A DNA stretch of 64,000 nt from Rickettsiales bacterium UBA6177 (GTDB taxonomy: Bacteria > Pseudomonadota > Alphaproteobacteria > Rickettsiales > UBA6177): NCBI GenBank assembly GCA_002422875.1, contig DITT01000029.1:9641-73640 (forward strand). Reading direction: 5' to 3'. This document shows, one piece after another, positions 8,590 through 63,500 of this stretch (position 1 is its first letter; each line of letters begins with the position of its first letter). The translations under genes were made by a program, and so were the position numbers. The notes beneath the pieces were generated by a model. The model saw nothing but the letters and a program-made list of their open reading frames with translations. It did not search any database and had not been told where the DNA came from.

Positions 8590-10071
8590 TCAATTTAATT
8601 TTGTTTTTTTGTTAAATGGGTTCATAAAAATCAATATTGCTAAAGTTGGAACAATAAAATTAATTAAATTAGTAGTAATCATTAACTCAGCAACATTGTG
8701 ATAGTCGCCCCTTTTAATAATATATATCTCAGATAAAATTCTTGTTAAAATACGTGCTCCACCAACATATGCAAGACTCATTAAAGTCATTACGATAGCA
8801 AACCAATTAGCAGTATGTTTCTTTGGTGCATAATAAGTAGCAGCTGTGCATAAGACTAGAAAAGCAAATGTGCTAGTAGGAGCATTAATACCAGTATCAG
8901 CTATGCCAATTATAGATAATGTAAAAATTCCAATACCTAAATATTTCTCAGTGAAATGATGTAAGCCGTATGCCATACCAAGCATAGGTAATTGCATAAT
9001 ACAGTGAATTAGATTTAAAATTAAGAAGGTTTTGGCAATATTAATTTTAAGTATTTTCTTACCAAGGGTGAGAAGCAAAATAAAGCTTATAATAATAGTA
9101 AGTAATTTTAAAAATGAAATAATTTGAGGAGTAAAATGAAGTACATCAATTTGCCACCATTCAACTCCAGGGCCAAAATTTGGTGAACAGCGATAACAAA
9201 ATGTAACAAAAATAATACTTAAGATTTTCTTTCTATTTTCGGGTATAATTTCTTTTATCAATTTGTTAATGCCAAAAATTGAAACTATTACTCCAATAAA
9301 AAATAATATCTCTTGGCTATAAGCAATTCTAAAGAAGGAAAGAATTATTACAGCTAAAAAATAAATACCTGAGATAAACACCATTGAATAATCTTGTTCA
9401 AATTCTGGTATTTGAGGTTCTTTTCTTACGATTATAATACCAAATATTGCAATTAATGATACTAATGGCAGAAAGTAGCTAATTGTACCATATGAGAATT
9501 TTGTTGCAATATAACCTCCTATTAAAACTCCGAAGAATGAGCCTGTAGTATCAAATATTTTTGAGTAAAGCTGAACTAAATTTATTTCTTCATGAATATT
9601 ATCCTTGTCAATAGGAGTGCCATTGCTGCTTGTTTTTTTTACTACGTCATAACATAAAGTATCAGCTATAAGATCTTGTAAAACAACACCAGTAGTTACA
9701 AGTGCTCCAGAAAGACAAAGTAATTGAAAAATACTTAAAAAAGCAAAATTAATTTTATTATTAGCAATCATTATAATTACTATATTACCAAGTAAAATTA
9801 GAATATTTGCAATAAATACATATATATTTCTGTGACTGTTGAATATTTTGATATTATCAACAATTTGTCCAAAAATAATCTTCATCGACCATGGTAATCC
9901 TGACCAAATAGTAATAGAAATTATTTCTGAAGTAGTTAAAGATAGTGAGTTTTTAATCCAAAATAATTGCGCAATATCAGAGAAAACTATAAAAGAATTT
10001 GCAAAATAAATAGTGAGTATTGGTAAATAGGCAAGCTTAAAGTTACTCGACAGGTACCTTAGGTAATTCAT
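8590..10071 (-). CDS. BT1 (folate/biopterin transporter)-like MFS permease
   Basis: Polytopic membrane protein. SGLPWSMKIIFGQIVDNIKIF resembles the BT1 signature (lPWs.Kp.yG...D). Confidence 0.5.
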   Translation of the reverse strand: MNYLRYLSSNFKLAYLPILTIYFANSFIVFSDIAQLFWIKNSLSLTTSEIISITIWSGLPWSMKIIFGQIVDNIKIFNSHRNIYVFIANILILLGNIVIIMIANNKINFAFLSIFQLLCLSGALVTTGVVLQDLIADTLCYDVVKKTSSNGTPIDKDNIHEEINLVQLYSKIFDTTGSFFGVLIGGYIATKFSYGTISYFLPLVSLIAIFGIIIVRKEPQIPEFEQDYSMVFISGIYFLAVIILSFFRIAYSQEILFFIGVIVSIFGINKLIKEIIPENRKKILSIIFVTFCYRCSPNFGPGVEWWQIDVLHFTPQIISFLKLLTIIISFILLLTLGKKILKINIAKTFLILNLIHCIMQLPMLGMAYGLHHFTEKYLGIGIFTLSIIGIADTGINAPTSTFAFLVLCTAATYYAPKKHTANWFAIVMTLMSLAYVGGARILTRILSEIYIIKRGDYHNVAELMITTNLINFIVPTLAILIFMNPFNKKTKLN

Positions 10072-11938: not shown

Positions 11939-12970
11939 TTAGTCTTTTTCATATTTTAAAGTTCTATGAATCATTTTTATATAATCATTCATAACCCTAT
12001 CTATTGATCGATACTTTAGCACAAGATCTCTTAAGGATTCATAATTTAAAATGTTTGATTGTTTATTTGAAAATCCAACAAAATTTCTATTCATGCAATC
12101 AATAAAATTAGATTTATTTAAAAAGCCATTATAGTTAATATGAGAAGAAACAAAGACAGGTAAACCTAATAATGATGCCTCAAGAACAACGTTTCCAACT
12201 CCACACACAAATCTATATTTATTTTGATTAAGATGCTCTAGCGTCTTAATTTTTCCAATAAAACAGTCATCTTTAAGGTCGAACTCTTTTTTTAATTGTT
12301 CTTTGACAGAATAGGAAAAGGCAGAAATTCCCGCAATTTCAAAATTACACCTTACAGATTTACAATATTTTATGGCCGTTCTTATTTGATCTAACTTATC
12401 AGGATCTAGTCTTGATATAATTATCGCCTTATTTTGTTTTTCGCGCTTATATAAAGAAAGTTTTACCTTATCAGGTATCATATTCGGGAAAATATCATAA
12501 TTCCCGGGAGCGTCTCTTTTACAAGTGTTAATAGAATTTACTGCATTGTACAAAGCCTTTTTAAAAAATTCATAAGTGATTCCATGGTTTTGAATCCCAC
12601 AATCCCATCTTTTCATAATCTTATTGTAATTGATAAACTTGTCTTTATGGCCGGTTATTTGAAACTCAATAAGAAAAGGATCTAGCCTATCACATATTTT
12701 AACAATCGTATGCGTTGTATTATAAGATCTAAAACAGATTTGAAAGACTTTAAATTTTGAAAATATAGACTTATTATTGCTTTCTATGTCTGTGATTAAG
12801 TTTATGTCATAGCCCTTTTTTTCAAGAAAAGAAAACATATTAGAAAGCTTTGTTTCAACCCCTCCACATTCCTTTATATTCCTAATGATATAAACCAATC
12901 GCTTTGATCCCCCATTATTTTTTATTTTCTGGGTTCTAAACACATTCTTTAAAGAATTTATAATTTTCAT
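11939..12970 (-). CDS. Putative GT-B (group 1-like) glycosyltransferase
   Basis: N-terminal YIIRNIKECGGVETKLSNM (GGxE-type motif) and C-terminal VCGVGNVVLEASLLGLPVFVSS (E-A-x3-G-x-P-V pattern), as seen in GT4-like enzymes. Weak, motif-level call only. Confidence 0.45.
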   Translation of the reverse strand: MKIINSLKNVFRTQKIKNNGGSKRLVYIIRNIKECGGVETKLSNMFSFLEKKGYDINLITDIESNNKSIFSKFKVFQICFRSYNTTHTIVKICDRLDPFLIEFQITGHKDKFINYNKIMKRWDCGIQNHGITYEFFKKALYNAVNSINTCKRDAPGNYDIFPNMIPDKVKLSLYKREKQNKAIIISRLDPDKLDQIRTAIKYCKSVRCNFEIAGISAFSYSVKEQLKKEFDLKDDCFIGKIKTLEHLNQNKYRFVCGVGNVVLEASLLGLPVFVSSHINYNGFLNKSNFIDCMNRNFVGFSNKQSNILNYESLRDLVLKYRSIDRVMNDYIKMIHRTLKYEKD

Positions 12971-14913: not shown

Positions 14914-15663
14914 TTAACCTTTTCCCTCTTTGCTAAGTAAGCTTTCATTAAAAATACAACCAACTTCACTACCTCTTCTAATAGTGTATTTAGAAGAAAT
15001 ACGATGAATTACAATATACCTTCCTTTGATTGAAAAATTAACAATACCTTCTGTATTATCTGGATAAACAACGTAAAATGCAGGTAATTCTTGGGTGTTT
15101 TTATCATATTCAATATATGTATGTACGCCATCATCAAATATTTTTACTGGTGCAATTGATTCATCACCACTAATAGTATAGTTATAATTTTTACTATTAT
15201 CATCTATTTCAAAAGCATCAGTATCATCATTACCTGCAAGTTCAGCGCCATTCTCATCTTCTGGATAAAGGAATTTGACAGAGAAAACCATATTGGGATC
15301 ATTAATACTTTTTGCATAATTTGCATGTAATTCAAAATGATACACTCTCTTATTAGTAATAACAGTCATGTTAGTTGTTGCATCATTCTCAATTGGTTTG
15401 ATAAACAGGCGATTTGCATTCGGAACAATTTGCCATGCTACAGAATCACCCATAGTAAGAGAACTTATAGTTTCATCTGGTGCAAAAACTATACTCGACT
15501 CATAGCCATAAAATCCGATATATTTAAAAACATCATTAGGATTATATACAATGACCCTTAATCTTTGATCTGTAGGTAGTGGTCGTGCTTCACGAATAGC
15601 CCAAGCTGTTTGGGCATTTAAGGAATGAAAGATAAATAAAAAAGCTAAAAATACTTTTTTCAT
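14914..15663 (-). CDS. virB9: Type IV secretion system protein VirB9
   Basis: Signal peptide, the N-terminal domain (RVIVYNPNDVFKYIGFYGYESSIVF...VAWQI...LFIKP...TTNMTVITNKRVYHFEL) and the C-terminal domain (KIFDDGVHTYIEY...). Confidence 0.9.
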   Translation of the reverse strand: MKKVFLAFLFIFHSLNAQTAWAIREARPLPTDQRLRVIVYNPNDVFKYIGFYGYESSIVFAPDETISSLTMGDSVAWQIVPNANRLFIKPIENDATTNMTVITNKRVYHFELHANYAKSINDPNMVFSVKFLYPEDENGAELAGNDDTDAFEIDDNSKNYNYTISGDESIAPVKIFDDGVHTYIEYDKNTQELPAFYVVYPDNTEGIVNFSIKGRYIVIHRISSKYTIRRGSEVGCIFNESLLSKEGKG

Positions 15664-15698
15664 AATGATTTCCTATAATTGATAATCATATTAAATTA

Positions 15699-16394
15699 TT
15701 AGTTGAATGTTTTTGCAAGATATTTAGTAACTTTGAAGTCAATAATTTTATCATTATTATTTAAAAGTTGCTCTATATCACTAAAACTATAAAAAATTTC
15801 TGCTTTACCCTTTTGAATCTGAACCTGATTTTTAAGAATAATACTCTTTTCAAAGTCAACAACAGCAATTTTCTCATTAACCTTCTTGCTCTCTTTAAAG
15901 TTAGTAGCTATTACTTTTACAGTGCTAATAAACTTTGTACCATAGATTAATAAGGGACTATCTTCATTATCTATACTAATGTTTTTTAGATATTTATTAT
16001 ATTCTTCAGTAGAAGAGTGATTTTTTATATAAACATCTTTATCTCCTTGTTCGCTTAATTTAAAAGACTCTCTATTTTCAAGATATTCTGTAACAAGCTG
16101 TTTCTCAAGAGCAAGTTGCGGAGAAATATTAATAGGTAATGTATTAATATAGCTATATGTATTATCAATATCATTGTTATAAGATAGAAATGATATTTGA
16201 TTAGTGTATGAGCTTATATTGCTTGCATATAAAAATGCAATACCAGCTGCAAGCGCAAGTATAGATCCTATAACGACTATAAAAGTTCTCTCAACATGAG
16301 GCCCTACGAATTTGTCTAAATACCATCTTCTAGCATCAATAAAATATTGACCAGAGTTTATAGATTTTGCTATTGCTTTGTTGGCTTCATTCAT
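15699..16394 (-). CDS. virB8: Type IV secretion system protein VirB8
   Basis: Bitopic protein: a cytoplasmic N-terminus (YFIDARRWY), one TM segment and an NTF2-like periplasmic domain of the right length. Sits directly upstream of virB9. Confidence 0.8.
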   Translation of the reverse strand: MNEANKAIAKSINSGQYFIDARRWYLDKFVGPHVERTFIVVIGSILALAAGIAFLYASNISSYTNQISFLSYNNDIDNTYSYINTLPINISPQLALEKQLVTEYLENRESFKLSEQGDKDVYIKNHSSTEEYNKYLKNISIDNEDSPLLIYGTKFISTVKVIATNFKESKKVNEKIAVVDFEKSIILKNQVQIQKGKAEIFYSFSDIEQLLNNNDKIIDFKVTKYLAKTFN

Positions 16395-16410
16395 TTTTTT
16401 TACCTATTAC

Positions 16411-17790
16411 TTAAGTCATTTTAGCTGGTATAACAAGTCTATCAAAATCTTCACTAGATAAAAGTCCAAGCAGTGTAGCAGCTTCTTTTAACGTACAGTG
16501 ATGATTATGAGCATATTTTGCAATTTTAGCAGCATTATCGTATCCAATATGATTATTAAGGGCCGTAACAAGCATTAATGATTGATTAAGCAGAAGCTCA
16601 ATTCTAGTTTCATTTGCTTGTAAATCATTAATACATTTATCTGTGAAATTACGACAAGCATCTGCTAAAAGTTTTATTGATTGCAATAAATTTAGGATCA
16701 TAACTGGCTTAAAAACATTGAGCTCGAAGTGACCATTTGATCCTGCAATTGTAATAGTTACATTATTACCCATCACTTGAGTACATACCATGGTGAGTGC
16801 CTCACATTGAGTTGGATTTACTTTACCAGGCATTATTGATGATCCAGGTTCATTTTCTGGTAAAGTAATTTCACCTATGCCACATCTTGGCCCTGAAGCA
16901 AGCATACGGATGTCATTTGCAATTTTCATAAGGCTTGTTGCAAGCACATTAAGAGCTCCTGAAACTTCAACAATAGTATCATTAGATGCTAATGCTTCAA
17001 ATTTATTTTCAGCTGAGATAAATTTTTCATTTAAGAATTCTGAAAGATTAGTAGCAAATTTTTCTGCAAATTCTTTTTTGGCATTAATGCCAGTACCAAC
17101 AGCTGTACCACCTTGTGCAATATATGAAAGCCTAGTTAAAGTAGCTTCAATTCTTTCAAGTGAAAGTTTTAATTGCATTACATATCCAGAAAATTCCTGA
17201 CCAAGAGTCAGAGGGGTCGCATCTTGTAAGTGAGTGCGGCCAATTTTAATAATTTTTGTAAAACTTTTACTTTTTTTCTCAAGTGCATCTTTCAAATATT
17301 TTATTTGTGGGATTAGCTCTTTTTTTATTTTGAGCAATGCTGCTACATGCATAGCGGTAGGAAAAGTATCGTTTGAAGATTGAGATTTATTAACATGGTC
17401 ATTAGGGTGAATAGGATGTTTCGTACCTTTTTCTTGACCTAAACTTTCGTTACATAAATTAGATATTACTTCATTGATATTCATATTTGTTTGAGTACCA
17501 GATCCTGTTTGCCAAACTGATAAAGGGAATTGATTATCATATTCGCCAGCCATTATTTTCTTTACAAATTTCTTAATAGCTACAAAAAGCTCTTCTTTTA
17601 AGTCTCCAAGTTCAAAATTAGTTTTAGCTGCCGCAAGTTTTATTGCAGCTAACGCATGAATTATATCAATAGGCATTTTTTCATCGCCTATTTTAAAGTT
17701 TTGCATCGATCTTTGCGTTTGTGCTCCCCAATATGATGTAACTGGTACTTCAATTTCACCAAAAGAGTCATTTTCTATTCTATATAGCAT
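16411..17790 (-). CDS. fumC: Class II fumarate hydratase
   Basis: Signature [16 protein letters not shown]; 459 aa. Confidence 0.97.
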
Positions 17791-17853: not shown

Positions 17854-18663
17854 TTACTGTATATATATGCCTGTATAATCTGGGTTATAAATTTTAAAAT
17901 CATGTTTTATATTCATGATGGTTTCAGATGATCCTAAAAAAAGAACACCATGAGGGTCTAATATAGTCTTTAAAGAAGATAAAGCAGCTTCTTTATTTTT
18001 AGAGTCAAAATAGATTAAAACATTACGGCAAAAAATAATATCGAATTTTTCATAAAAATTAAGTTTTGCTAGTAAATTGGCTTGTTTAAATTTTACTAAA
18101 TGTAGAATATCATTTTTAAGCTGCCAGTCCTTATCAACTTGAATAAAATATTTAAGCAATAGTTGGATAGGAAGGCCTCTTTGTACTTCAAATTGTGAGA
18201 AAATTCCTTTTTCAGCTCTTTTTACAACACTTGCATTAATATCTGATGCCAAAATATTAAATAGATGGGCTTTATCAGGAAAATTTTCTTTAATTAACAT
18301 AGCAATTGAATAAGGTTCTTGGCCACTTGAACAGGCAGCACACCAAATTCTAATTTTTTGATTAGGTTTTCTCAAAAGTAAATTAGGTATTACTTCATTT
18401 TTTAAAATATCAAAAGGATTTCTATCCCTAAAAAAAGATGACTCATTAGTTGTCATTAACTCAATCATTGAATTTATTAAATCAGGTGAACGAGTAAGTT
18501 TTATGTGTGTAATTAATTCGTCAACACTATCACAACTCTTAGTTTTAGCTAAAGGTATTAATCTTGCTTCAAGCAAGTAGCTTTTTTCTTTGCAAATAGA
18601 TATTCCTGATAAGGCTTCAATAGTTTCGCATGCATATTTTAGATTTTGTGGGCTGATATTCAT
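17854..18663 (-). CDS. cheR: Chemotaxis protein methyltransferase CheR
   Basis: N-terminal helical domain and a SAM-binding fold (IRIWCAACSSGQEPYSIAM, IFCRNVLIYF). Confidence 0.9.
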   Translation of the reverse strand: MNISPQNLKYACETIEALSGISICKEKSYLLEARLIPLAKTKSCDSVDELITHIKLTRSPDLINSMIELMTTNESSFFRDRNPFDILKNEVIPNLLLRKPNQKIRIWCAACSSGQEPYSIAMLIKENFPDKAHLFNILASDINASVVKRAEKGIFSQFEVQRGLPIQLLLKYFIQVDKDWQLKNDILHLVKFKQANLLAKLNFYEKFDIIFCRNVLIYFDSKNKEAALSSLKTILDPHGVLFLGSSETIMNIKHDFKIYNPDYTGIYIQ

Positions 18664-19787
18664 TTGCTACCATTTTTTATTATAAAATTTGCTATTTCAT
18701 TTAAAGGTAGTACAGCAGAGCACAAATTGTTAACAGCAACATTACCTGGCATCCCCCATACGATGCTTGATGTTTCATCTTGTGCGATTACACTGCTACC
18801 CATCATTACAGCAGCTTTAGATCCTTCTAAAGCATCCTTACCCATTCCGGTGAGTACAATTGTAATCATTTTATCCTTGAAAATACTAGCTGCAGATTCA
18901 ATCATTGGGTCAGCAGATGGTTTGCAGAAATTAATAGCTGGACCATTATCTAGAGTTATACAAGCTTTCCTAGCTTTAAGAGTAATCTTCATGTGAATAT
19001 TGCCTGGTGCAATATATAAATTACCCTCAGTAAGTATTTCTCCATCTTGAGCTTCTTTACATTTTATTATACCTAGCTTATCAAGATTTTCTGCAAATAG
19101 TTTAGTAAATAAAACTGGCATATGCTGGGTAATAATAATTATTTTATTAGCAAGGTAGTTTGCACCAAAGCTAACCAATAAGTCACTTATAGCTTTTGGT
19201 CCACCAGTTGAAGAGGCAATAGCTAAAATTTTTGGTTCAAAGTTAATAGGTCGATCTGTTCTAAGTACTATATCACTAGATAATAATCTGTATGTTAGTG
19301 CGCTGCTTAAATGATTATTACACTGATCAATACTTGATAAAGGAGGAGAGATATAAGAATTATAAGTCTTTTTAGCGATATTTTTAATTTTAGCAATTAA
19401 ATTATCTTGAAATGCATTACCATTTGTCATGGTATTTGAATCTGGTTTTTCAATATAATCAACAGCACCAAGAGTTAATGCTTTAATTGCAATAGGTGCA
19501 TTCTTAGTGGTTAATGTTGAAACCATAAAGATTTTGATATTGCTATCTTTGTTTAAAATATGAGGGATAGCTTCAATACCGTTCATTCCAGGCATTTCAA
19601 TGTCGAGTAATAAAACATCTGCAACTATATTATCCATTGCTCGTAGTAAGCTTTCTGCAGAATGGTATAAACCAACTATTTCGATATTATCATCCTTAGT
19701 TATAATTCTTTTTAAAACACTTCTAACAACTAGTGAATCGTCAACAATCATAACTCGTATTTTGGAATTATTTGGCAAATCTTTCAT
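18660..19787 (-). CDS. cheB: Chemotaxis response regulator protein-glutamate methylesterase CheB
   Basis: REC domain (VMIVDDS...LLLDIEMPGMNG) plus an esterase domain (IASSTGGP, ITQHMP, AQDETSSIVWGMPG). Confidence 0.9.
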   Translation of the reverse strand: MKDLPNNSKIRVMIVDDSLVVRSVLKRIITKDDNIEIVGLYHSAESLLRAMDNIVADVLLLDIEMPGMNGIEAIPHILNKDSNIKIFMVSTLTTKNAPIAIKALTLGAVDYIEKPDSNTMTNGNAFQDNLIAKIKNIAKKTYNSYISPPLSSIDQCNNHLSSALTYRLLSSDIVLRTDRPINFEPKILAIASSTGGPKAISDLLVSFGANYLANKIIIITQHMPVLFTKLFAENLDKLGIIKCKEAQDGEILTEGNLYIAPGNIHMKITLKARKACITLDNGPAINFCKPSADPMIESAASIFKDKMITIVLTGMGKDALEGSKAAVMMGSSVIAQDETSSIVWGMPGNVAVNNLCSAVLPLNEIANFIIKNGSK

Positions 19788-20152
19788 GTCAAGATGCCTG
19801 TTTGAATAAATTTAGATCTAATAAGTTCAAGATCAAAAGGTTTCATGATATATTCATCAGCACCAGCATCCATTGCTTCTTTAATTTTTGGGAAATCATT
19901 TTCACTAGTACAAAAAATTATTTTTACACCAGTGTTTTTAGGATTTTTTCTAAATTCTTTTATAAAAGCAAGGCCATCCATAATTGGCATATTCCAATCA
20001 AGTAAAATACAGTCTGGTTTGATTTGTTCGCATAATTCTAGAGCTTCTTTACCGTCTGCAGCCTCTTTTACTTCAAAGCCAAGTTGTATTAACATAGCTG
20101 AAACAAGCTTTCTTACTACTTTTGAATCGTCAACGGTTAAGCATATTTTCAT
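19784..20152 (-). CDS. cheY: Single-domain response regulator CheY
   Basis: 122 aa, with TVDDS...LLDWNMPIMDG...KIIFCTS...YIMKPF. Confidence 0.85.
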   Translation of the reverse strand: MKICLTVDDSKVVRKLVSAMLIQLGFEVKEAADGKEALELCEQIKPDCILLDWNMPIMDGLAFIKEFRKNPKNTGVKIIFCTSENDFPKIKEAMDAGADEYIMKPFDLELIRSKFIQTGILT

Positions 20153-20175
20153 ATAAATTTCCTATTAGAATTTAA

Positions 20176-20637
20176 TCAAGTTAAAAGAAGATCAAATAAT
20201 TTTTTTATATCTATTACGACTATTAATTCATCTTTGCCTAAAATAATACCTGTAGCAATATTATGCCAATGTTGCTCTATACTATCAGGTTTAGGCAAGA
20301 TCTCATTTTCAGTTATAGAAATTACCTCTTCTACAGAATCAGCAATAATACTATATAAATCATTCTTGATTTCGATTACTACATTCATGCTATTCTCGCA
20401 AATAGAGGTATCATCCATTTTTAGAAGATTTTTAATATTAATAGCTGTAACTATCCTACCTCTTAAATTAATTAGGCCGATGATTGTATCAGGAGCAAGT
20501 GGCACTTTAGTCACTTTACTTAGGACCAGAATATCACGAATATTAACGATAGGGATTGCTATAGTTTGCTTATTAATTTTCATTTTCAGAAGTCTCTGTA
20601 TAGGCGCAGGATTAAAATTTGTATTAACTTCGCTCAT
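20176..20637 (-). CDS. cheW: Chemotaxis coupling protein CheW
   Basis: 153-aa single CheW-like domain (IAIPIVNIRDIL...LINLRGRIVTAI...LIVVIDIKKL). Confidence 0.85.
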   Translation of the reverse strand: MSEVNTNFNPAPIQRLLKMKINKQTIAIPIVNIRDILVLSKVTKVPLAPDTIIGLINLRGRIVTAINIKNLLKMDDTSICENSMNVVIEIKNDLYSIIADSVEEVISITENEILPKPDSIEQHWHNIATGIILGKDELIVVIDIKKLFDLLLT

Positions 20638-20649
20638 TAGTTATTATCC

Positions 20650-23253
20650 CTAATCTATAATTTCAGATAAATGTTTTAGTATGTCATGATGGTTTGTTTT
20701 TGCCACGCAATATAAAATGCCATGTTCAATAGCTTCCTGCATTTTCCTTTCTTCATTAGTTGATGTAAGAGCAATTATAGGAATTTTATTAAATTTAGTG
20801 TCGTTTTTACAAAATTGAGCAAATTCTATACCAGACATTTTAGGCATATTGATATCAGTTATGATAGCCTTTATTTGTTGAGTGGTATTTTTTTGCATAA
20901 ATTCAATAGCGCTAAGAGCACTTTCAAAAGCGATAACTTCTTTTTCTAAATGACTTAAAGAAGGGGGAATAAATTTTCTAAAAAAAATACTATCATCAAC
21001 GTAAATAATAACTTCTTTATTATTTTCATTAACCAAATTTTTAGTATTATCTCCTTCTTCGGAATAAAAAGATTGGAATAATTCACCTACATTTACAATA
21101 TCCATTGTTTTTTCATGAATAACAACTGCATTATGGGAGAAATAATTTATATCATTATTTATTTCTATGGTAACTGCATCCACTATTTCCTTAACAATTA
21201 AACCAAGAATCGATTCTTTATTATTAAAGACTACTACTTGAAGCTCGCCATGTTCTGGATATATGAGTTGATCACTAATTTTTAATAGAGGCATCAAAGT
21301 ACCGCGATATTGTACAACCTCTTGGTTATTTGATACTTCAATAGAATCTACGTTTATTTCTTCTAACCTTGAAACGATTTCAAGAGGAATAGCCTTATGA
21401 GTGTTATTATCTGATTTAACAACAAGGAAAGTTATAGTATTCTCAATATTATTTTTAGCTTTTGTAAGGGTATCTTCATTGTGTTCTTGATAGTTTTCAG
21501 TGAGGCAAATAGTTTTAAACAAACCTACTGGGTCAAGAATCATAATAACCTTGCCATTTCCTAAAATAGTATTCCCAGAATAAAGGCCAATCTTCATTAG
21601 GGATTCTACAATAGGTTTTACAACTATTTCTTCGCTGTCAAAGACTTTATCAACAATTATACCAAAATTATTGCCACTTATTTCACAAATTACTACGTAT
21701 GAAGTTTTGTTCTCAATAATCTCACTATGAGGTAACGCAAATAGTTTAGTTAAATCGACTATAGGTAATAAATTATCCCTAATTCTGAGTAGGTAGCTTT
21801 CGTTAATTTTTTCAATTTTATTTTCTTCATTTTTGCCTGCTTTACAAATCTCAAGAACATTTATTTGAGGTATCGCTAGATTTTCACCACCTGCTTCAAT
21901 AATTAATACTGGCATAATTGCAAGCGTAAGAGGTATTTTGATTGTAAAAACTGAGCCTTTCCCAGTAACTGATTTAAGATCGACACTGCCATTTATTTTG
22001 TTGATATTGTTTTTGACTACATCCATACCAACACCTCTTCCTGAAACCGCAGTAACAGTAGTAGCTGTGGAGAAGCCAGCTCTGAAAATATATTGAATAA
22101 TTTGCACTTCGCTCATCTGCGCTACTTGCTCAGCATTAGCAAGCTTACTGGTAATTATTTTTTCTTTTACTCTCTCAATATTAATGCCTCGACCATCATC
22201 TGAAATTTCAATAATAATATGACCACCTTGATGGAAGGCTTTTAGCACTATAGTTCCAGATTCGTTTTTACCTTGTTCAATCCTTTCTTGGGGTAGTTCA
22301 AGGCCATGATCTGCAGAGTTTCTAATCATATGAATTAGAGGGTCTTTAATAGATTCAATTAACTGCCTATCAAGCTCGGTTTCTTCGCCGACCATTTTTA
22401 AAATTATTTTTTTATCAAGTTCTTTAGCGAGATCTCTGATCATGCGTGGCAATTTAGTCCAAGCACTACTTATAGGCTGCATTCTGGTTTTCATAATACC
22501 TTCTTGCAGCTGTGAAGTAATATGACTGAGGTTTTGTATAGAGTTACTAAATTGAGTATTATTATTGCCTCTATTGAGCTGTAGTAATTGATTTCTGTTT
22601 AAAACAAGCTCCCCTACTATCTGCATTAAATTTTCAAGCACATCTATGCTTACTCTTATAGTATGGTTTTCAGACTTAGAGTTTATTTGAACAGCACTGC
22701 TAGCAACTTGATTTGCTTCCTTGGTTAAATTATTCTCAGGAGAGTTTGCTGGTTTTGTTGGTTGCGCTGTTGAAACTTCAGGGATAGTCTTGAGAGGCGT
22801 ATCAAAAATTGTAGTAATATCAGTATCTGATTTTAAAGAATCATCATCTGTTGTAGCGATTGTGTCTTCTAGAATATTTCCTTTGGCTGCCTCATTTAGT
22901 CTAAAAATAAGGTTGTCATCTTTGCCTTCTGGCTCGGAACCATTTGCTTCAATTGCTACAATTATTTCCTTAATTTTATCAACGCACTCAAGGATAAGTG
23001 AAACAATATCACCGTTAACAATTAGTTGGTTACTACGAATTTTATCCATAATATTTTCGCCGGCATGAGCAACAGACTCAAGCCTTGAGAGCGCTAAAAA
23101 GCCACATGTGCCTTTTATAGTATGCATAATTCTAAAAATGCTACCTAGTAACTCTTTATCATTAGGGTTTTGTTCTAGACTAACAAGTTGATTATCAAGA
23201 TTATCTAATCCTTCTTTTGTTTCTGCTAAAAAATCTGAAATTAGATCATCCAT
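20650..23253 (-). CDS. cheA: Hybrid chemotaxis histidine kinase CheA: Hpt, dimerization, HATPase, two CheW-like domains, C-terminal REC
   Basis: Hpt HTIKGTCGFLAL; catalytic core HMIRNSADHG, DDGRGI, GRGVGMDVV; two consecutive CheW-like segments; a terminal receiver (IIYVDDS...AIITDINMPKMSG...IIALTS). Confidence 0.92.
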   Translation of the reverse strand: MDDLISDFLAETKEGLDNLDNQLVSLEQNPNDKELLGSIFRIMHTIKGTCGFLALSRLESVAHAGENIMDKIRSNQLIVNGDIVSLILECVDKIKEIIVAIEANGSEPEGKDDNLIFRLNEAAKGNILEDTIATTDDDSLKSDTDITTIFDTPLKTIPEVSTAQPTKPANSPENNLTKEANQVASSAVQINSKSENHTIRVSIDVLENLMQIVGELVLNRNQLLQLNRGNNNTQFSNSIQNLSHITSQLQEGIMKTRMQPISSAWTKLPRMIRDLAKELDKKIILKMVGEETELDRQLIESIKDPLIHMIRNSADHGLELPQERIEQGKNESGTIVLKAFHQGGHIIIEISDDGRGINIERVKEKIITSKLANAEQVAQMSEVQIIQYIFRAGFSTATTVTAVSGRGVGMDVVKNNINKINGSVDLKSVTGKGSVFTIKIPLTLAIMPVLIIEAGGENLAIPQINVLEICKAGKNEENKIEKINESYLLRIRDNLLPIVDLTKLFALPHSEIIENKTSYVVICEISGNNFGIIVDKVFDSEEIVVKPIVESLMKIGLYSGNTILGNGKVIMILDPVGLFKTICLTENYQEHNEDTLTKAKNNIENTITFLVVKSDNNTHKAIPLEIVSRLEEINVDSIEVSNNQEVVQYRGTLMPLLKISDQLIYPEHGELQVVVFNNKESILGLIVKEIVDAVTIEINNDINYFSHNAVVIHEKTMDIVNVGELFQSFYSEEGDNTKNLVNENNKEVIIYVDDSIFFRKFIPPSLSHLEKEVIAFESALSAIEFMQKNTTQQIKAIITDINMPKMSGIEFAQFCKNDTKFNKIPIIALTSTNEERKMQEAIEHGILYCVAKTNHHDILKHLSEIID

Positions 23254-23267
23254 ATTTATTCACCGTG

Positions 23268-23912
23268 TTACATGCTATTAAAAATTAAATCGAAAATTAG
23301 TTCATTGTCCTGAGTTGTAATATTAAGTTTAACATTCGAAGTTTTGATAAGCCTAGAAGAGTAATATAAATGAATATTCTTTGTTGTTAGTTCTTCTTCC
23401 TTAGCGCCTTTAGTAAGAATATAATGGTTGTCCTGGTCGAATTTTATAAGTTCGCCACTTGCTTTGATCTTAACTATGTAGTTATTATCTTTTTTAGCGA
23501 TAATACAATCTATTTTACCTTTCTTTATAACTGCTAAGCTAGCAATGTTAATTATGTTTGCAATGATTTTTGCTTGTAAGGCGCTAATATCATTTACTAC
23601 TTCTTGATTTTCAAATTCCCAATGAAATGGAATCTTGTTACTTTCAAGGTAATTAGTTATTACTTCTTTTGTTTGATCTAGTGAGGCATCAGTATCTGGC
23701 TTGTTATAGCCGTAAATATTTCTATAAAATTGCAATCTGAGTAATGCTTGTTTAGATCCAAGTTCTAAGATATGAAAAGCTTTCTTTTTAATATCTTCAT
23801 TTTCATTTGTAAGAAATTCAACTCCATTACTAATTGCGCCAATTGGGCCTGCTAAATCATGGCAGAACCTAGCGTTTAGAAGCTCGGATAATTTAAATTC
23901 ATTTATCATCAT
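23268..23912 (-). CDS. chpT: ChpT-like histidine phosphotransferase
   Basis: LLNARFCHDLAGPIGAISNGVEFL and LLRLQFYRNIYGY parallel the Caulobacter ChpT H-box (LLAARLCHDFISPASAI) and LQFTRVAFG helix. About 210 aa, with a degenerate HATPase-like C-terminal half. Confidence 0.7.
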   Translation of the reverse strand: MMINEFKLSELLNARFCHDLAGPIGAISNGVEFLTNENEDIKKKAFHILELGSKQALLRLQFYRNIYGYNKPDTDASLDQTKEVITNYLESNKIPFHWEFENQEVVNDISALQAKIIANIINIASLAVIKKGKIDCIIAKKDNNYIVKIKASGELIKFDQDNHYILTKGAKEEELTTKNIHLYYSSRLIKTSNVKLNITTQDNELIFDLIFNSM

Positions 23913-24055
23913 TTACCTTTTAATTTGCTTATATCCAAAGCTATTATAGCAATAAAAATATTTAATAAAATCACTATTCATTTAAATGACATTATCTTAT
24001 GGATATTATATTAATAAAGTACTAATGAAGTTTGGTTATAGGAAAATAATTAAAA

Positions 24056-58591: not shown

Positions 58592-59278
58592 ATGACTAGT
58601 AAATTTTGTTTAAATGTTGCGTTGCGTGACGCAATAATAGTTACCGTAGCACTAGTATCTATATCTAGTATAAGTGGTTATGCTATTTATTTAAAGGCTG
58701 CTTCGGCTTTTAAAGAAGAGGTGAAAAGCAATTTATCATTTTTTGTTAAAGGCACTTCAGGGTTGGTAGATGGAGATCTCCATGAAAAGCTTTTAGTTTC
58801 TGATGATATGTCATCTGAAAACTATAACAAAGTTAAAGCTCCATTAAATCGTATCCTAGAAGGATTTGAAAATATTGATTCAATTTATACTCTTGTTAAA
58901 AAAGATAACAAATTTTATTTTATTATGAATATTCCAGGATTAGGACAAGCTAATAATACGATTCCTGTAATGACAGAATATAAAGGCCCAACTCCGATAT
59001 TAGATTCAACTTTTGCTACCCAAGATGTAATGGTAGAAAATGAGCTTTATAGTGATGAATTGGGAACATTCCTGAGTGCTTATGCGCCTATTTATAACAG
59101 TAAAAAAGAGTTTATAGGAGTTATTGGTGCTGATCTTAAGGATAATAAATATTATGAAGGCATAGACAAAGTTAAAGAGTCATTATTTTCTGGTACTCTA
59201 GTTGCAATGTTTGTATCTATCTTAAGTGGTGTTGGAGTTTGGTTTGTTAGGAACTCTGCAATTAAGGCAGTTAATTAA
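58592..59278 (+). CDS. Stand-alone Cache/PDC-type extracytoplasmic sensor flanked by two TM helices, with no output domain
   Basis: TM1 (IIVTVALVSISSISGYAIY), a PDC-like core (IDSIYTLVKKDNKFYFIMN...DELGTFLSAYAPIYNSKKEFIGVIGADL), TM2 (LVAMFVSILSGVGVWFV), then the stop. Confidence 0.55.
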   Translation: MTSKFCLNVALRDAIIVTVALVSISSISGYAIYLKAASAFKEEVKSNLSFFVKGTSGLVDGDLHEKLLVSDDMSSENYNKVKAPLNRILEGFENIDSIYTLVKKDNKFYFIMNIPGLGQANNTIPVMTEYKGPTPILDSTFATQDVMVENELYSDELGTFLSAYAPIYNSKKEFIGVIGADLKDNKYYEGIDKVKESLFSGTLVAMFVSILSGVGVWFVRNSAIKAVN

Positions 59279-62465: not shown

Positions 62466-63500
62466 TTGTTTATAGACAAAGTCAAAGAAATAAGCATTAG
62501 TCCAAGCCAAGTATACGCCAATTTTGATTTAAGTGTGCCTGTGATTTATAAGGAAATTATTGCTATTAATCAAGAACATAATACTAATATTCTAAAATCA
62601 CTCGCTACTATTATAACTATTTATGATCTCAATAAATATAGTGTATTTGAAATAAACGAATTAGAAAGCAGAGCCGTTGATTATGCAAGAGCTGTAAGAG
62701 AATATTTAGAACTATTTTCGTTTAGAAGTAATTTTAATGATTGGGTAGATTTTCTTTCGTTTTTATATCTAAAAAGTAAACCAGAAGAGAAATTATTAAG
62801 TCAAGAACTTGAACAAAATAAGGAACAAGACCAAGAACAAGAATTTTCAGGAATAATTGCTGAATCTGCTACACGCGAAATAGTCCGGGAAATTTCTTAT
62901 GAGGATAAAGAAATAATTCTTGAAATAGTAAGGGAAAATATTAAAAAAAATTCCCGTTTAAAGGGAAGATATTTTCAGTTGGTAATTGAAAAAATCTTAG
63001 AAAATAAAAAAAAGATATCTGCTAAAATAAAAGAGCAAGTGAAAAGGAATCATAAAAAAGAAAATCTTTTTTTAAGAACAATGAGGTTCTTTGGTTGGAA
63101 TTTAATAGAAGGAGCATTGAACAGATATAGAATGACCAATGTTACTGAGAAATCTGTAGATGCAAGTTTAACTTCGTTAAAACGCAGATCCTTTGCAAAG
63201 AGTGGGCTTGAATATAATTTAAAAACTAGGCAAGCTAAGATCTTAAAAGATATAGTAAGTAAAAAAGGTCAAAACACGCAGTATTTATATAGCGCTTTTC
63301 ATAGCCATAATCCTGAAGAGAAAATAAAATTACCAACAGGTATCGTTAATAATATTGAACTTAAGAGAGAAGCTCATAGGCTTGGCTCTACAGGAATGAG
63401 TAAATATGCTGCAGCACATGAAGCTGAGAATAATATTAATCATCGCCATGCAGATCAGGTTTTAAATTCCAAAACTAACAGCAAAGGTAGAGGTGCTTAA
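62466..63500 (+). CDS. Hypothetical 344-aa protein with no recognisable motif and an acidic EQNKEQDQEQE tract
   Basis: Long ORF with a TTG start. Charged and helical-looking. Divergent from comEC. Confidence 0.4.
   Translation: MFIDKVKEISISPSQVYANFDLSVPVIYKEIIAINQEHNTNILKSLATIITIYDLNKYSVFEINELESRAVDYARAVREYLELFSFRSNFNDWVDFLSFLYLKSKPEEKLLSQELEQNKEQDQEQEFSGIIAESATREIVREISYEDKEIILEIVRENIKKNSRLKGRYFQLVIEKILENKKKISAKIKEQVKRNHKKENLFLRTMRFFGWNLIEGALNRYRMTNVTEKSVDASLTSLKRRSFAKSGLEYNLKTRQAKILKDIVSKKGQNTQYLYSAFHSHNPEEKIKLPTGIVNNIELKREAHRLGSTGMSKYAAAHEAENNINHRHADQVLNSKTNSKGRGA

Follow-up and report, generated by a model that had tools for sequence, protein, structure and literature searches.

A canonical chpT gene directly upstream of a hybrid-cheA chemotaxis operon is an old alphaproteobacterial arrangement retained in a Rickettsiales genome

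The gene that precedes a chemotaxis operon in Rickettsiales bacterium UBA6177 encodes a canonical ChpT, as judged by sequence, fold and phylogeny, and its position directly upstream of a gene for a CheA with a C-terminal receiver domain (REC) is an old, widespread alphaproteobacterial arrangement rather than a peculiarity of this genome. The DNA that we analyzed, referred to below as the window, is a stretch of 64,000 nucleotides (64 kb) of contig DITT01000029.1 (assembly GCA_002422875.1), and coordinates refer to it unless another locus is named. We favor, with a probability of about 0.55, the explanation that this is the ordinary chpT of the genome, situated in an ancestral CtrA-associated motility neighborhood that has been compacted into one operon in a reduced genome. 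A first-pass annotation of the window had proposed another explanation, namely that phosphate flows from the CheA receiver through ChpT to CtrA.

The minus strand between 17854 and 23912 carries six intact, co-directional open reading frames (ORFs) in the order chpT-cheA-cheW-cheY-cheB-cheR:

chpT, 23268-23912, minus strand: 214 aa, or 213 aa if the second ATG is used; histidine phosphotransferase with the phospho-acceptor His in the CHD motif
cheA, 20650-23253, minus strand: 867 aa; hybrid kinase assigned to the F5 type, with the domain order P1(Hpt)-P3-P4-P5(CheW)-second CheW-like domain-REC
cheW, 20176-20637, minus strand: Pfam CheW, 1.6e-25
cheY, 19784-20152, minus strand: single-domain response regulator assigned to the F5 type; Pfam Response_reg, 2e-30; 54% identity to Azospirillum CheY1
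cheB, 18660-19787, minus strand: REC and methylesterase; NCBIfam CheB subfamily, 354.7 bits, above the cut-off
cheR, 17854-18663, minus strand: methyltransferase; Pfam CheR, 3.8e-59

The tight packing noted in the first-pass annotation was reproduced exactly from the ORF coordinates: spacers of 14, 12 and 23 bp separate chpT from cheA, cheA from cheW and cheW from cheY, and there are two 4-bp overlaps besides. In G+C content the region matches the window, which is at about 30% throughout. Purifying selection acts on each of the six genes, with ratios of nonsynonymous to synonymous substitution (dN/dS) of 0.08-0.17 against a 77%-identical relative, a comparison in which synonymous sites are near saturation. 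These values bear on the idea that the operon is a decaying, functionless remnant of the motility genes of an intracellular bacterium, with chpT stranded beside it. Such decay would fit the repeated loss of che operons in Rickettsiales and a window that has neither a gene for a methyl-accepting chemotaxis protein (MCP) nor a flagellar gene, but six full-length ORFs with intact catalytic residues and the low dN/dS make it the most improbable of the explanations weighed here.

The first ORF contains ARFCHDLAGPIGAISNG and LQFYRNIYGY, and its original designation as ChpT is well supported. It passed the gathering score of the Pfam family HPTransfase (PF10090), with a match at 2.2e-13, and matched the Brucella ChpT of known structure (4QPJ) at 1.2e-14. 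Both NCBIfam ChpT models were matched over their full length (Brucella/Rhizobium, 2.7e-32; Caulobacter, 2.4e-26), at scores below their equivalog cut-offs. The His of the CHD motif is invariant across eight homologs, and public records contain the protein as the 213-aa version that begins with the second ATG. An AlphaFold model of the protein (mean predicted local distance difference test score, pLDDT, of 90.5) has its best PDB matches in the ChpT structures from Brucella and Caulobacter (4QPJ, 4QPK, 4FMT and 4FPP), with template modeling (TM) scores of 0.83-0.87, whereas true kinases score at most 0.66. In this comparison the fold consists of a helical hairpin that bears the phospho-His and resembles the dimerization and histidine phosphotransfer domain of kinases, together with a degenerate α/β domain resembling their catalytic and ATP-binding domain.

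In a neighbor-joining tree, the window ChpT groups with Rickettsia-type and other Rickettsiales ChpTs, the Rickettsia-type ones coming from loci that have no che genes. Since che-linked and unlinked ChpTs interleave in this tree, and since the window protein sits with the Rickettsia-type sequences, the che-linked ChpT is the canonical ChpT. The resemblance to the CckA-ChpT-CtrA/CpdR systems of Caulobacter and Brucella extends over the fold, the His motif, the full-length NCBIfam matches and, in relatives of the window locus, adjacency to ctrA; the difference is a sequence identity of just 15-24%, together with the sub-threshold NCBIfam scores. In Caulobacter itself, chpT is not known to adjoin a che operon.

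Another possibility is that the window ORF is a Che-dedicated paralog of ChpT, acting as an auxiliary Hpt protein of the chemotaxis pathway, while a separate canonical chpT serves CckA and CtrA. The che-linked ChpTs do share a CHDLAGPI motif where Caulobacter and Brucella have CHDF/IISP. However, the same motif occurs in Rickettsia-type ChpTs without che genes and in ChpTs directly beside ctrA. The interleaving in the tree also speaks against a dedicated paralog, as does the Rickettsiales locus L011, which retains chpT despite loss of the che operon, and two chpT copies would be unexpected in a reduced Rickettsiales genome. We therefore consider a paralog very unlikely.

The gene order is conserved far beyond this genome. 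Homologs of ChpT at 100, 77, 38 and 33% identity all share the order chpT-cheA(REC)-cheW-cheY-cheB-cheR. A scan for the ChpT motif, restricted to one genome per species and followed by tblastn and ORF analysis, recovered this order at 23 non-redundant genome loci, all 23 of which encode a linked CheA of the REC-hybrid kind. The loci span metagenome-assembled genomes (MAGs) of Rickettsiales, many Rhodospirillales, Marinibaculum pumilum, Sneathiellaceae, Acetobacteraceae and Pararhodospirillum oryzae. By tblastn of plasmids and chromids, the same order was found in Azospirillum lipoferum 4B and A. brasilense Sp7; the A. lipoferum gene is annotated as 'histidine phosphotransferase family protein'. 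Viewed from the CheA side, the picture is the same: among the 80 best metagenomic relatives of the window CheA, 69 had room for an upstream gene, and a ChpT gene lies directly upstream on the same strand in 58 of these (84%). Spacers of 10-31 bp between chpT and cheA recur in several lineages, that of the window included. At locus L005, the chpT-che order persists amid quite different flanking genes.

The adjacency of chpT and cheA pointed out in the first-pass annotation is therefore strongly conserved from both sides, in the 23 genome loci as well as in the 58 of 69 metagenomic ones. Prior annotation and characterization of this gene order in related genomes would, according to that annotation, speak against its proposal. 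The gene order does stand in public annotation, both in the RefSeq record of A. lipoferum 4B and, as 'histidine phosphotransferase ChpT', in Joint Genome Institute (JGI) records; a functional characterization of the link was not found.

Several further observations were made at these loci. The cheB gene of the chpT-che operon in the Rickettsiales MAG GCA_964574415.1 (L005/L012, 14300-14926) encodes a methylesterase of 208 aa with no receiver. The minority of close CheA-REC relatives that have no upstream chpT (L128, L135, L139, L143, L146 and L150) mostly come with an MCP gene at the locus instead and may represent a distinct sub-arrangement. At locus L003, the genes upstream of the pair formed by the 5-formyltetrahydrofolate (5-formyl-THF) cyclo-ligase gene and chpT are ham1, hemN, a murD-like gene, a gene for a major facilitator superfamily transporter, zapA, a DUF1674 gene and rsmE; in UBA6177 they are some 40 kb off, past the right edge of the window. 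The corresponding rearrangement breakpoint (window about 24056-64000 plus L168, versus L003 1-9845) lies just outside an intact chpT-che-fumC-virB8-virB9 block. In Marinibaculum, a 4-bp overlap of chpT and cheA suggested by ORF calling was rejected, as the two genes are about 107 bp apart when the cheA start is set by homology.

The domain content of CheA allowed the operon to be placed within the classification of chemotaxis systems:

P1/Hpt domain of CheA, 22969-23247, minus strand: residues 3-95; Pfam Hpt, 1.2e-12; phospho-His in MHTIKGTCGF; H44 invariant
Dimerization domain and ATPase core of CheA, 21925-22665, minus strand: residues 197-443; Pfam H-kinase_dim and HATPase_c
Two CheW-like domains of CheA, 21049-21909, minus strand: residues 449-580 and about 605-735; Pfam CheW in two stretches
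C-terminal receiver of CheA, 20677-21009, minus strand: residues 749-859; DD, D800, S831 and K852

Both CheW-like domains were recovered by a purpose-built CheW hidden Markov model, the second one weakly. The terminal receiver described in the first-pass annotation is complete in its catalytic residues, and D753, D754, D800, S831 and K852 are invariant in 10 orthologs. Two CheW domains combined with a REC are the hallmark architecture of the CheA of class F5 (PMC10782961), and the Che1 operon of A. brasilense Sp7 has been classed as F5 (PMC6759762). The window che operon is, by homology, gene order and domain architecture rather than by formal MiST/HMM classification, orthologous to Che1, the operon of the F5 flagellar class in Azospirillum and Rhodospirillum centenum. 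The likeness to Che1 of A. brasilense Sp7, A. lipoferum 4B and R. centenum lies in the order cheA(2xCheW+REC)-cheW-cheY-cheB-cheR, and it extends to the sequences, Azospirillum CheA being 44-57% identical (57% in the core), CheY 54% and CheR 44-45%. In both Azospirillum strains, moreover, a ChpT-family gene is directly upstream of Che1, as in the window. There are also differences. The Azospirillum spacer is 350-390 bp long and contains CtrA-box-like sites, and ctrA and fliI are just downstream, whereas in the window a 14-bp spacer is found and the operon is followed by fumC-virB8-virB9. According to the literature, A. brasilense CheA1 has an isoform with an N-terminal membrane region (TMX); the window CheA begins directly at P1.

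The first-pass annotation had taken the hybrid CheA-REC as typical of Che pathways with alternative cellular functions. Homology, gene order and architecture point to the F5 flagellar class instead, and a REC is not diagnostic of an alternative function. Within F5 systems, the CheA REC is needed for chemotaxis signaling, and the F5 CheAs of Caulobacter and Azorhizobium also carry one (PMC10782961). The window CheA shares its C-terminal REC with a complete set of catalytic residues with Helicobacter pylori CheAY2 and the F5 CheA of Azorhizobium caulinodans, where the REC acts as a phosphate sink or as an aid to P1 dephosphorylation; no gene for CheZ, CheX or CheC was found in the window che operon. 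It differs in that no Pro follows the conserved Lys (VAK-T/F), and a sink-type role here would be by analogy.

The absence of this usual Pro is general among F5 CheA receivers, for which the consensus is DYVAKFDR; the window sequence is YCVAKTNH (residues 849-855, nucleotides about 20689-20709). The α1 helix of F5 CheA receivers is distinctive as well (DDSpFFRNlL). In the A. lipoferum 4B record (L086, 10047-12842; AZOLI_RS26215), the 931-aa hybrid CheA1 ortholog is named 'chemotaxis protein CheW' in RefSeq, which is likely a misannotation that arose because of its two CheW domains.

We next consider the wider neighborhood. At many loci, those of both Azospirillum strains included, ctrA lies on the opposite strand just downstream of the che operon, usually followed by fliI. 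Where che genes are reduced or absent, ctrA stands directly beside chpT, and in some genomes the two are convergent neighbors. In L011 and in many Rhodospirillales loci, ctrA is a neighbor either of chpT itself or of the block that chpT forms with the che genes. The Rickettsiales relative L011 has fliI, ctrA, chpT and fumC with no che operon; in L017, too, chpT is probably followed by fumC with no che operon, the FumC match lying at the end of the contig, about 1.2 kb downstream. In the window, L003 and L004, the che operon is located between chpT and fumC-virB8-virB9:

fumC, virB8 and virB9, 14914-17790, minus strand: directly downstream of the che operon; a conserved Rickettsiales synteny frame

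Thus, chpT, F5-type che genes, ctrA and fliI make up an ancestral neighborhood, in which repeated loss has affected the che genes but not chpT. Because chpT stays by fumC when the che genes are absent, and because Rickettsia-type genomes without che fall in the same ChpT clade, the core role of ChpT is independent of Che.

A reduced version of the cluster was seen in about 20 Rhodospirillaceae-type MAGs, where chpT-cheY-cheR is followed by convergent ctrA and fliI, with no cheA, cheW or cheB; the REC protein at these loci is the ortholog of the F5 CheY:

Reduced clusters, at about 10.0-12.1 kb in most: L034, L044, L047, L050, L052, L057-L063, L065, L069-L072, L075, L076 and L079

Just upstream of A. 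lipoferum chpT, on the opposite strand, is a gene for a hybrid sensor histidine kinase/response regulator (L086, 6493-8298; AZOLI_RS26230), which could be a further REC-bearing input to ChpT.

In the DNA between and before chpT and cheA, three elements can be distinguished in the window:

chpT-cheA spacer, 23254-23267, minus strand: 14 bp, CACGGTGAATAAAT; contains a Shine-Dalgarno-like GGTGA; too short for a promoter or terminator
chpT upstream intergenic region, 23913-24055, minus strand: also serves as the upstream region of the 5-formyl-THF cyclo-ligase gene, which is divergent; probably contains the promoter of the chpT-che transcript
Extended -10-like element TGCTATAAT, 23943-23951, minus strand: about 31 nucleotides before the chpT ATG, inside a 25-nucleotide block identical in L003; putative promoter

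The intergenic region is 87% identical to its counterpart in L003 (9846-10000) despite near-saturated synonymous sites, and two blocks within it, ATTAGTACTTTATTAATA and ATTAAATATTTTTATTGCTATAAT, are perfectly conserved, which suggests that they are candidate regulatory sites. No terminator was found in the sequence of the chpT-cheA junction. Given the 14-bp spacer with its GGTGA, the lack of a terminator at the junction and the conserved upstream region, chpT and cheA are very probably co-transcribed in this genome from a promoter before chpT, so that the initial description of chpT as the first gene of the che operon is very probably correct.

Most relatives have a longer spacer, in which a different signal is visible. 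We surveyed the chpT-cheA spacers of 70 GC-rich loci (12,985 bp in total, median 162 bp) for CtrA boxes, a perfect box being TTAA-N7-TTAA. Seven perfect boxes were observed against 0.05 expected, a number reached in none of 1000 shuffles, and six of the seven are located 128-131 bp before the cheA ATG. With one mismatch allowed, sites are present in 33 of the 70 loci against 1.3 expected, and they cluster 122-136 bp before cheA. Both Azospirillum strains are among these loci:

A. lipoferum 4B (L086), 9661-10046: chpT-cheA spacer with CtrA-box-like sites
A. brasilense Sp7 (L087), about 9622-9982: chpT-cheA spacer with CtrA-box-like sites

The perfect boxes take the form TTAAC-N5-GTTAA in seven loci (L097, L103, L107, L115, L119, L124 and L155). 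It appears that in most relatives a CtrA-type promoter of its own precedes the F5-type che operon, in the spacer after chpT; with such a promoter in a spacer of about 160 bp, chpT and cheA would usually be distinct transcription units. This is in keeping with the established control that CtrA exerts over alphaproteobacterial genes for motility and chemotaxis, of which the che operon of Caulobacter is one example (cited in PMC2877005).

The explanation that we favor, an ordinary chpT in a compacted CtrA-associated motility neighborhood, can be outlined as follows. By analogy with its family in other Alphaproteobacteria, ChpT would relay phosphate from CckA, its presumed donor, to CtrA and CpdR. 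The Che proteins would form a conventional flagellar chemotaxis pathway, with receptors and flagellar genes encoded elsewhere in the genome, and the CheA receiver would serve that pathway itself, through P1 dephosphorylation or a phosphate-sink-type role of the kind reported for F5 CheAs. The reason for the clustering of chpT with che genes would be that motility and chemotaxis genes have CtrA as their ancestral regulator. In the reduced Rickettsiales genome, the spacer would have collapsed to 14 bp, and chpT and the che genes would therefore be expressed as one unit from the conserved promoter upstream of chpT.

Several points weigh against this explanation. Some concern CtrA. No perfect TTAA-N7-TTAA box was found upstream of chpT in the window, where power is low at 30% GC, and a single CtrA-box-like site with one mismatch (24011-24025), situated in a conserved block of that upstream region, is not above chance. 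CtrA control is therefore putative for this genome, and the relatives that have boxes may cluster phylogenetically and so not represent 33 independent events. In the about 72 kb of this genome that were visible, cckA, ctrA, MCP and flagellar genes were not seen. Other points concern the gene pair. Conserved gene pairs often encode interacting proteins, and the same-strand adjacency of chpT and cheA, kept across orders and flank rearrangements, exceeds the conservation usual for co-regulation alone. In addition, every che-linked CheA at the 23 genome loci bears a REC, and ChpT by nature docks REC domains.

The same points about the gene pair lend some weight to a direct exchange of phosphoryl groups between the CheA receiver and ChpT, either passing F5 array output to ChpT and on to CtrA and CpdR or passing the state of CckA and ChpT to CheA. 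The very strong conservation of the adjacency, seen from both genes and surviving rearrangements of the flanks, speaks for such an exchange, as do the receivers of the linked CheAs with their intact catalytic residues and, in several lineages, a spacer of 10-31 bp. ChpT docks REC domains structurally (4QPJ). A precedent for a second REC-bearing hybrid kinase as donor would be Sphingomonas melonis, in which ChpT is fed not only by CckA but also by CcsA, a classical hybrid histidine kinase and not a CheA. A further pointer comes from A. brasilense, where Che1 has an influence on both cell length and clumping, exerted 'by an unknown mechanism' (PMC8561660).

On the other hand, the REC is fixed in F5 CheAs even where chpT is not adjacent, as at seven of our loci and, according to PMC10782961, in Caulobacter and Azorhizobium, and functions of this domain within chemotaxis are documented (PMC10782961). 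In a crude comparison over 29 genomes, with neither CckA-REC nor CpdR as a positive control, the similarity to CtrA-REC at contact positions was not higher for CheA-REC (1.22) than for CheY (1.52) or CheB-REC (1.47), which gave no support for a shared phosphodonor. In most relatives, furthermore, the promoter of CtrA type in a spacer of some 160 bp would usually make chpT and cheA separate transcription units. What the wiring from CheA to ChpT to CtrA, as originally proposed, draws on is adjacency, for which a CtrA-box promoter is a possible and simpler, regulatory, reason. In the full-text literature we found no paper linking ChpT with CheA or Che1; some subscription papers were beyond reach, so that an earlier mention is possible. 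Taken together, these considerations leave phosphoryl exchange between the two proteins as a tentative alternative, which may also coexist with regulatory clustering. Slightly more tentative still is the broader proposition that chpT before an F5-type cheA-REC reflects a real phosphotransfer link in many Alphaproteobacteria, whereby array activity would modulate CtrA~P or the state of CckA and ChpT would modulate CheA.

We also examined the remainder of the window, using Pfam scans of essentially all ORFs of at least 120 aa, the gene table and tblastn with MCP, FliI and CtrA queries. As far as Pfam and tblastn reach, the 64 kb contain no MCP, HAMP, flagellar, cckA or ctrA gene, in agreement with the first-pass annotation as regards MCPs, HAMP domains and flagellar genes. 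The approximately 8 kb past the right edge of the window hold housekeeping genes only, and ctrA is absent from the roughly 72 kb of this genome examined. The label 'MCP-less' given to the operon at first is accurate for the window. Since cheB and cheR are intact and constrained, genes for receptors are presumably located in other parts of the genome. Other genes in the window are those for ribosomal proteins and transporters, clpB, fur, virB8, virB9, fumC, hemB, htpG, rnc, era, uvrD and comEC, together with tlc (33990-35522) and genes for two ankyrin proteins.

Among the few ORFs with no Pfam match are four of sizeable length: 30036-32768 (plus strand, 910 aa), 11939-12970 (minus strand, 343 aa), 58592-59278 (plus strand, 228 aa) and 62466-63500 (plus strand, 344 aa). 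These ORFs, next to htpG, tlc and genes for ankyrin proteins, may encode effectors specific to the lineage. The 910-aa ORF is also gene-called in the public contig.

A che operon had been considered unusual for a lineage with tlc, a type IV secretion system and ankyrin proteins. Che genes are indeed uncommon in Rickettsiales, but they have already been described in basal Rickettsiales and basal Rickettsiaceae (PMC10847448; bioRxiv 10.1101/2021.08.31.458344). For the window itself, then, the result is mostly deflationary: a well-preserved ancestral alphaproteobacterial cluster persists in a Rickettsiales genome that bears tlc and ankyrin genes, consistent with the chemotaxis genes reported in basal Rickettsiaceae. 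For the Alphaproteobacteria as a whole, the conserved neighborhood of chpT, F5-type che genes, ctrA and fliI, with its positioned CtrA box, supports the control of motility and chemotaxis as the ancestral job of CtrA. If a link between the CheA receiver and ChpT were true, it could explain non-chemotaxis phenotypes of Che1 such as those in cell length and clumping of A. brasilense, and host-associated Rickettsiales could tie host-seeking to CtrA-controlled differentiation. A. brasilense Sp7 is a tractable organism for this question: its much-studied che1 operon is immediately preceded by chpT, and the connection between the two seems to have been overlooked so far.

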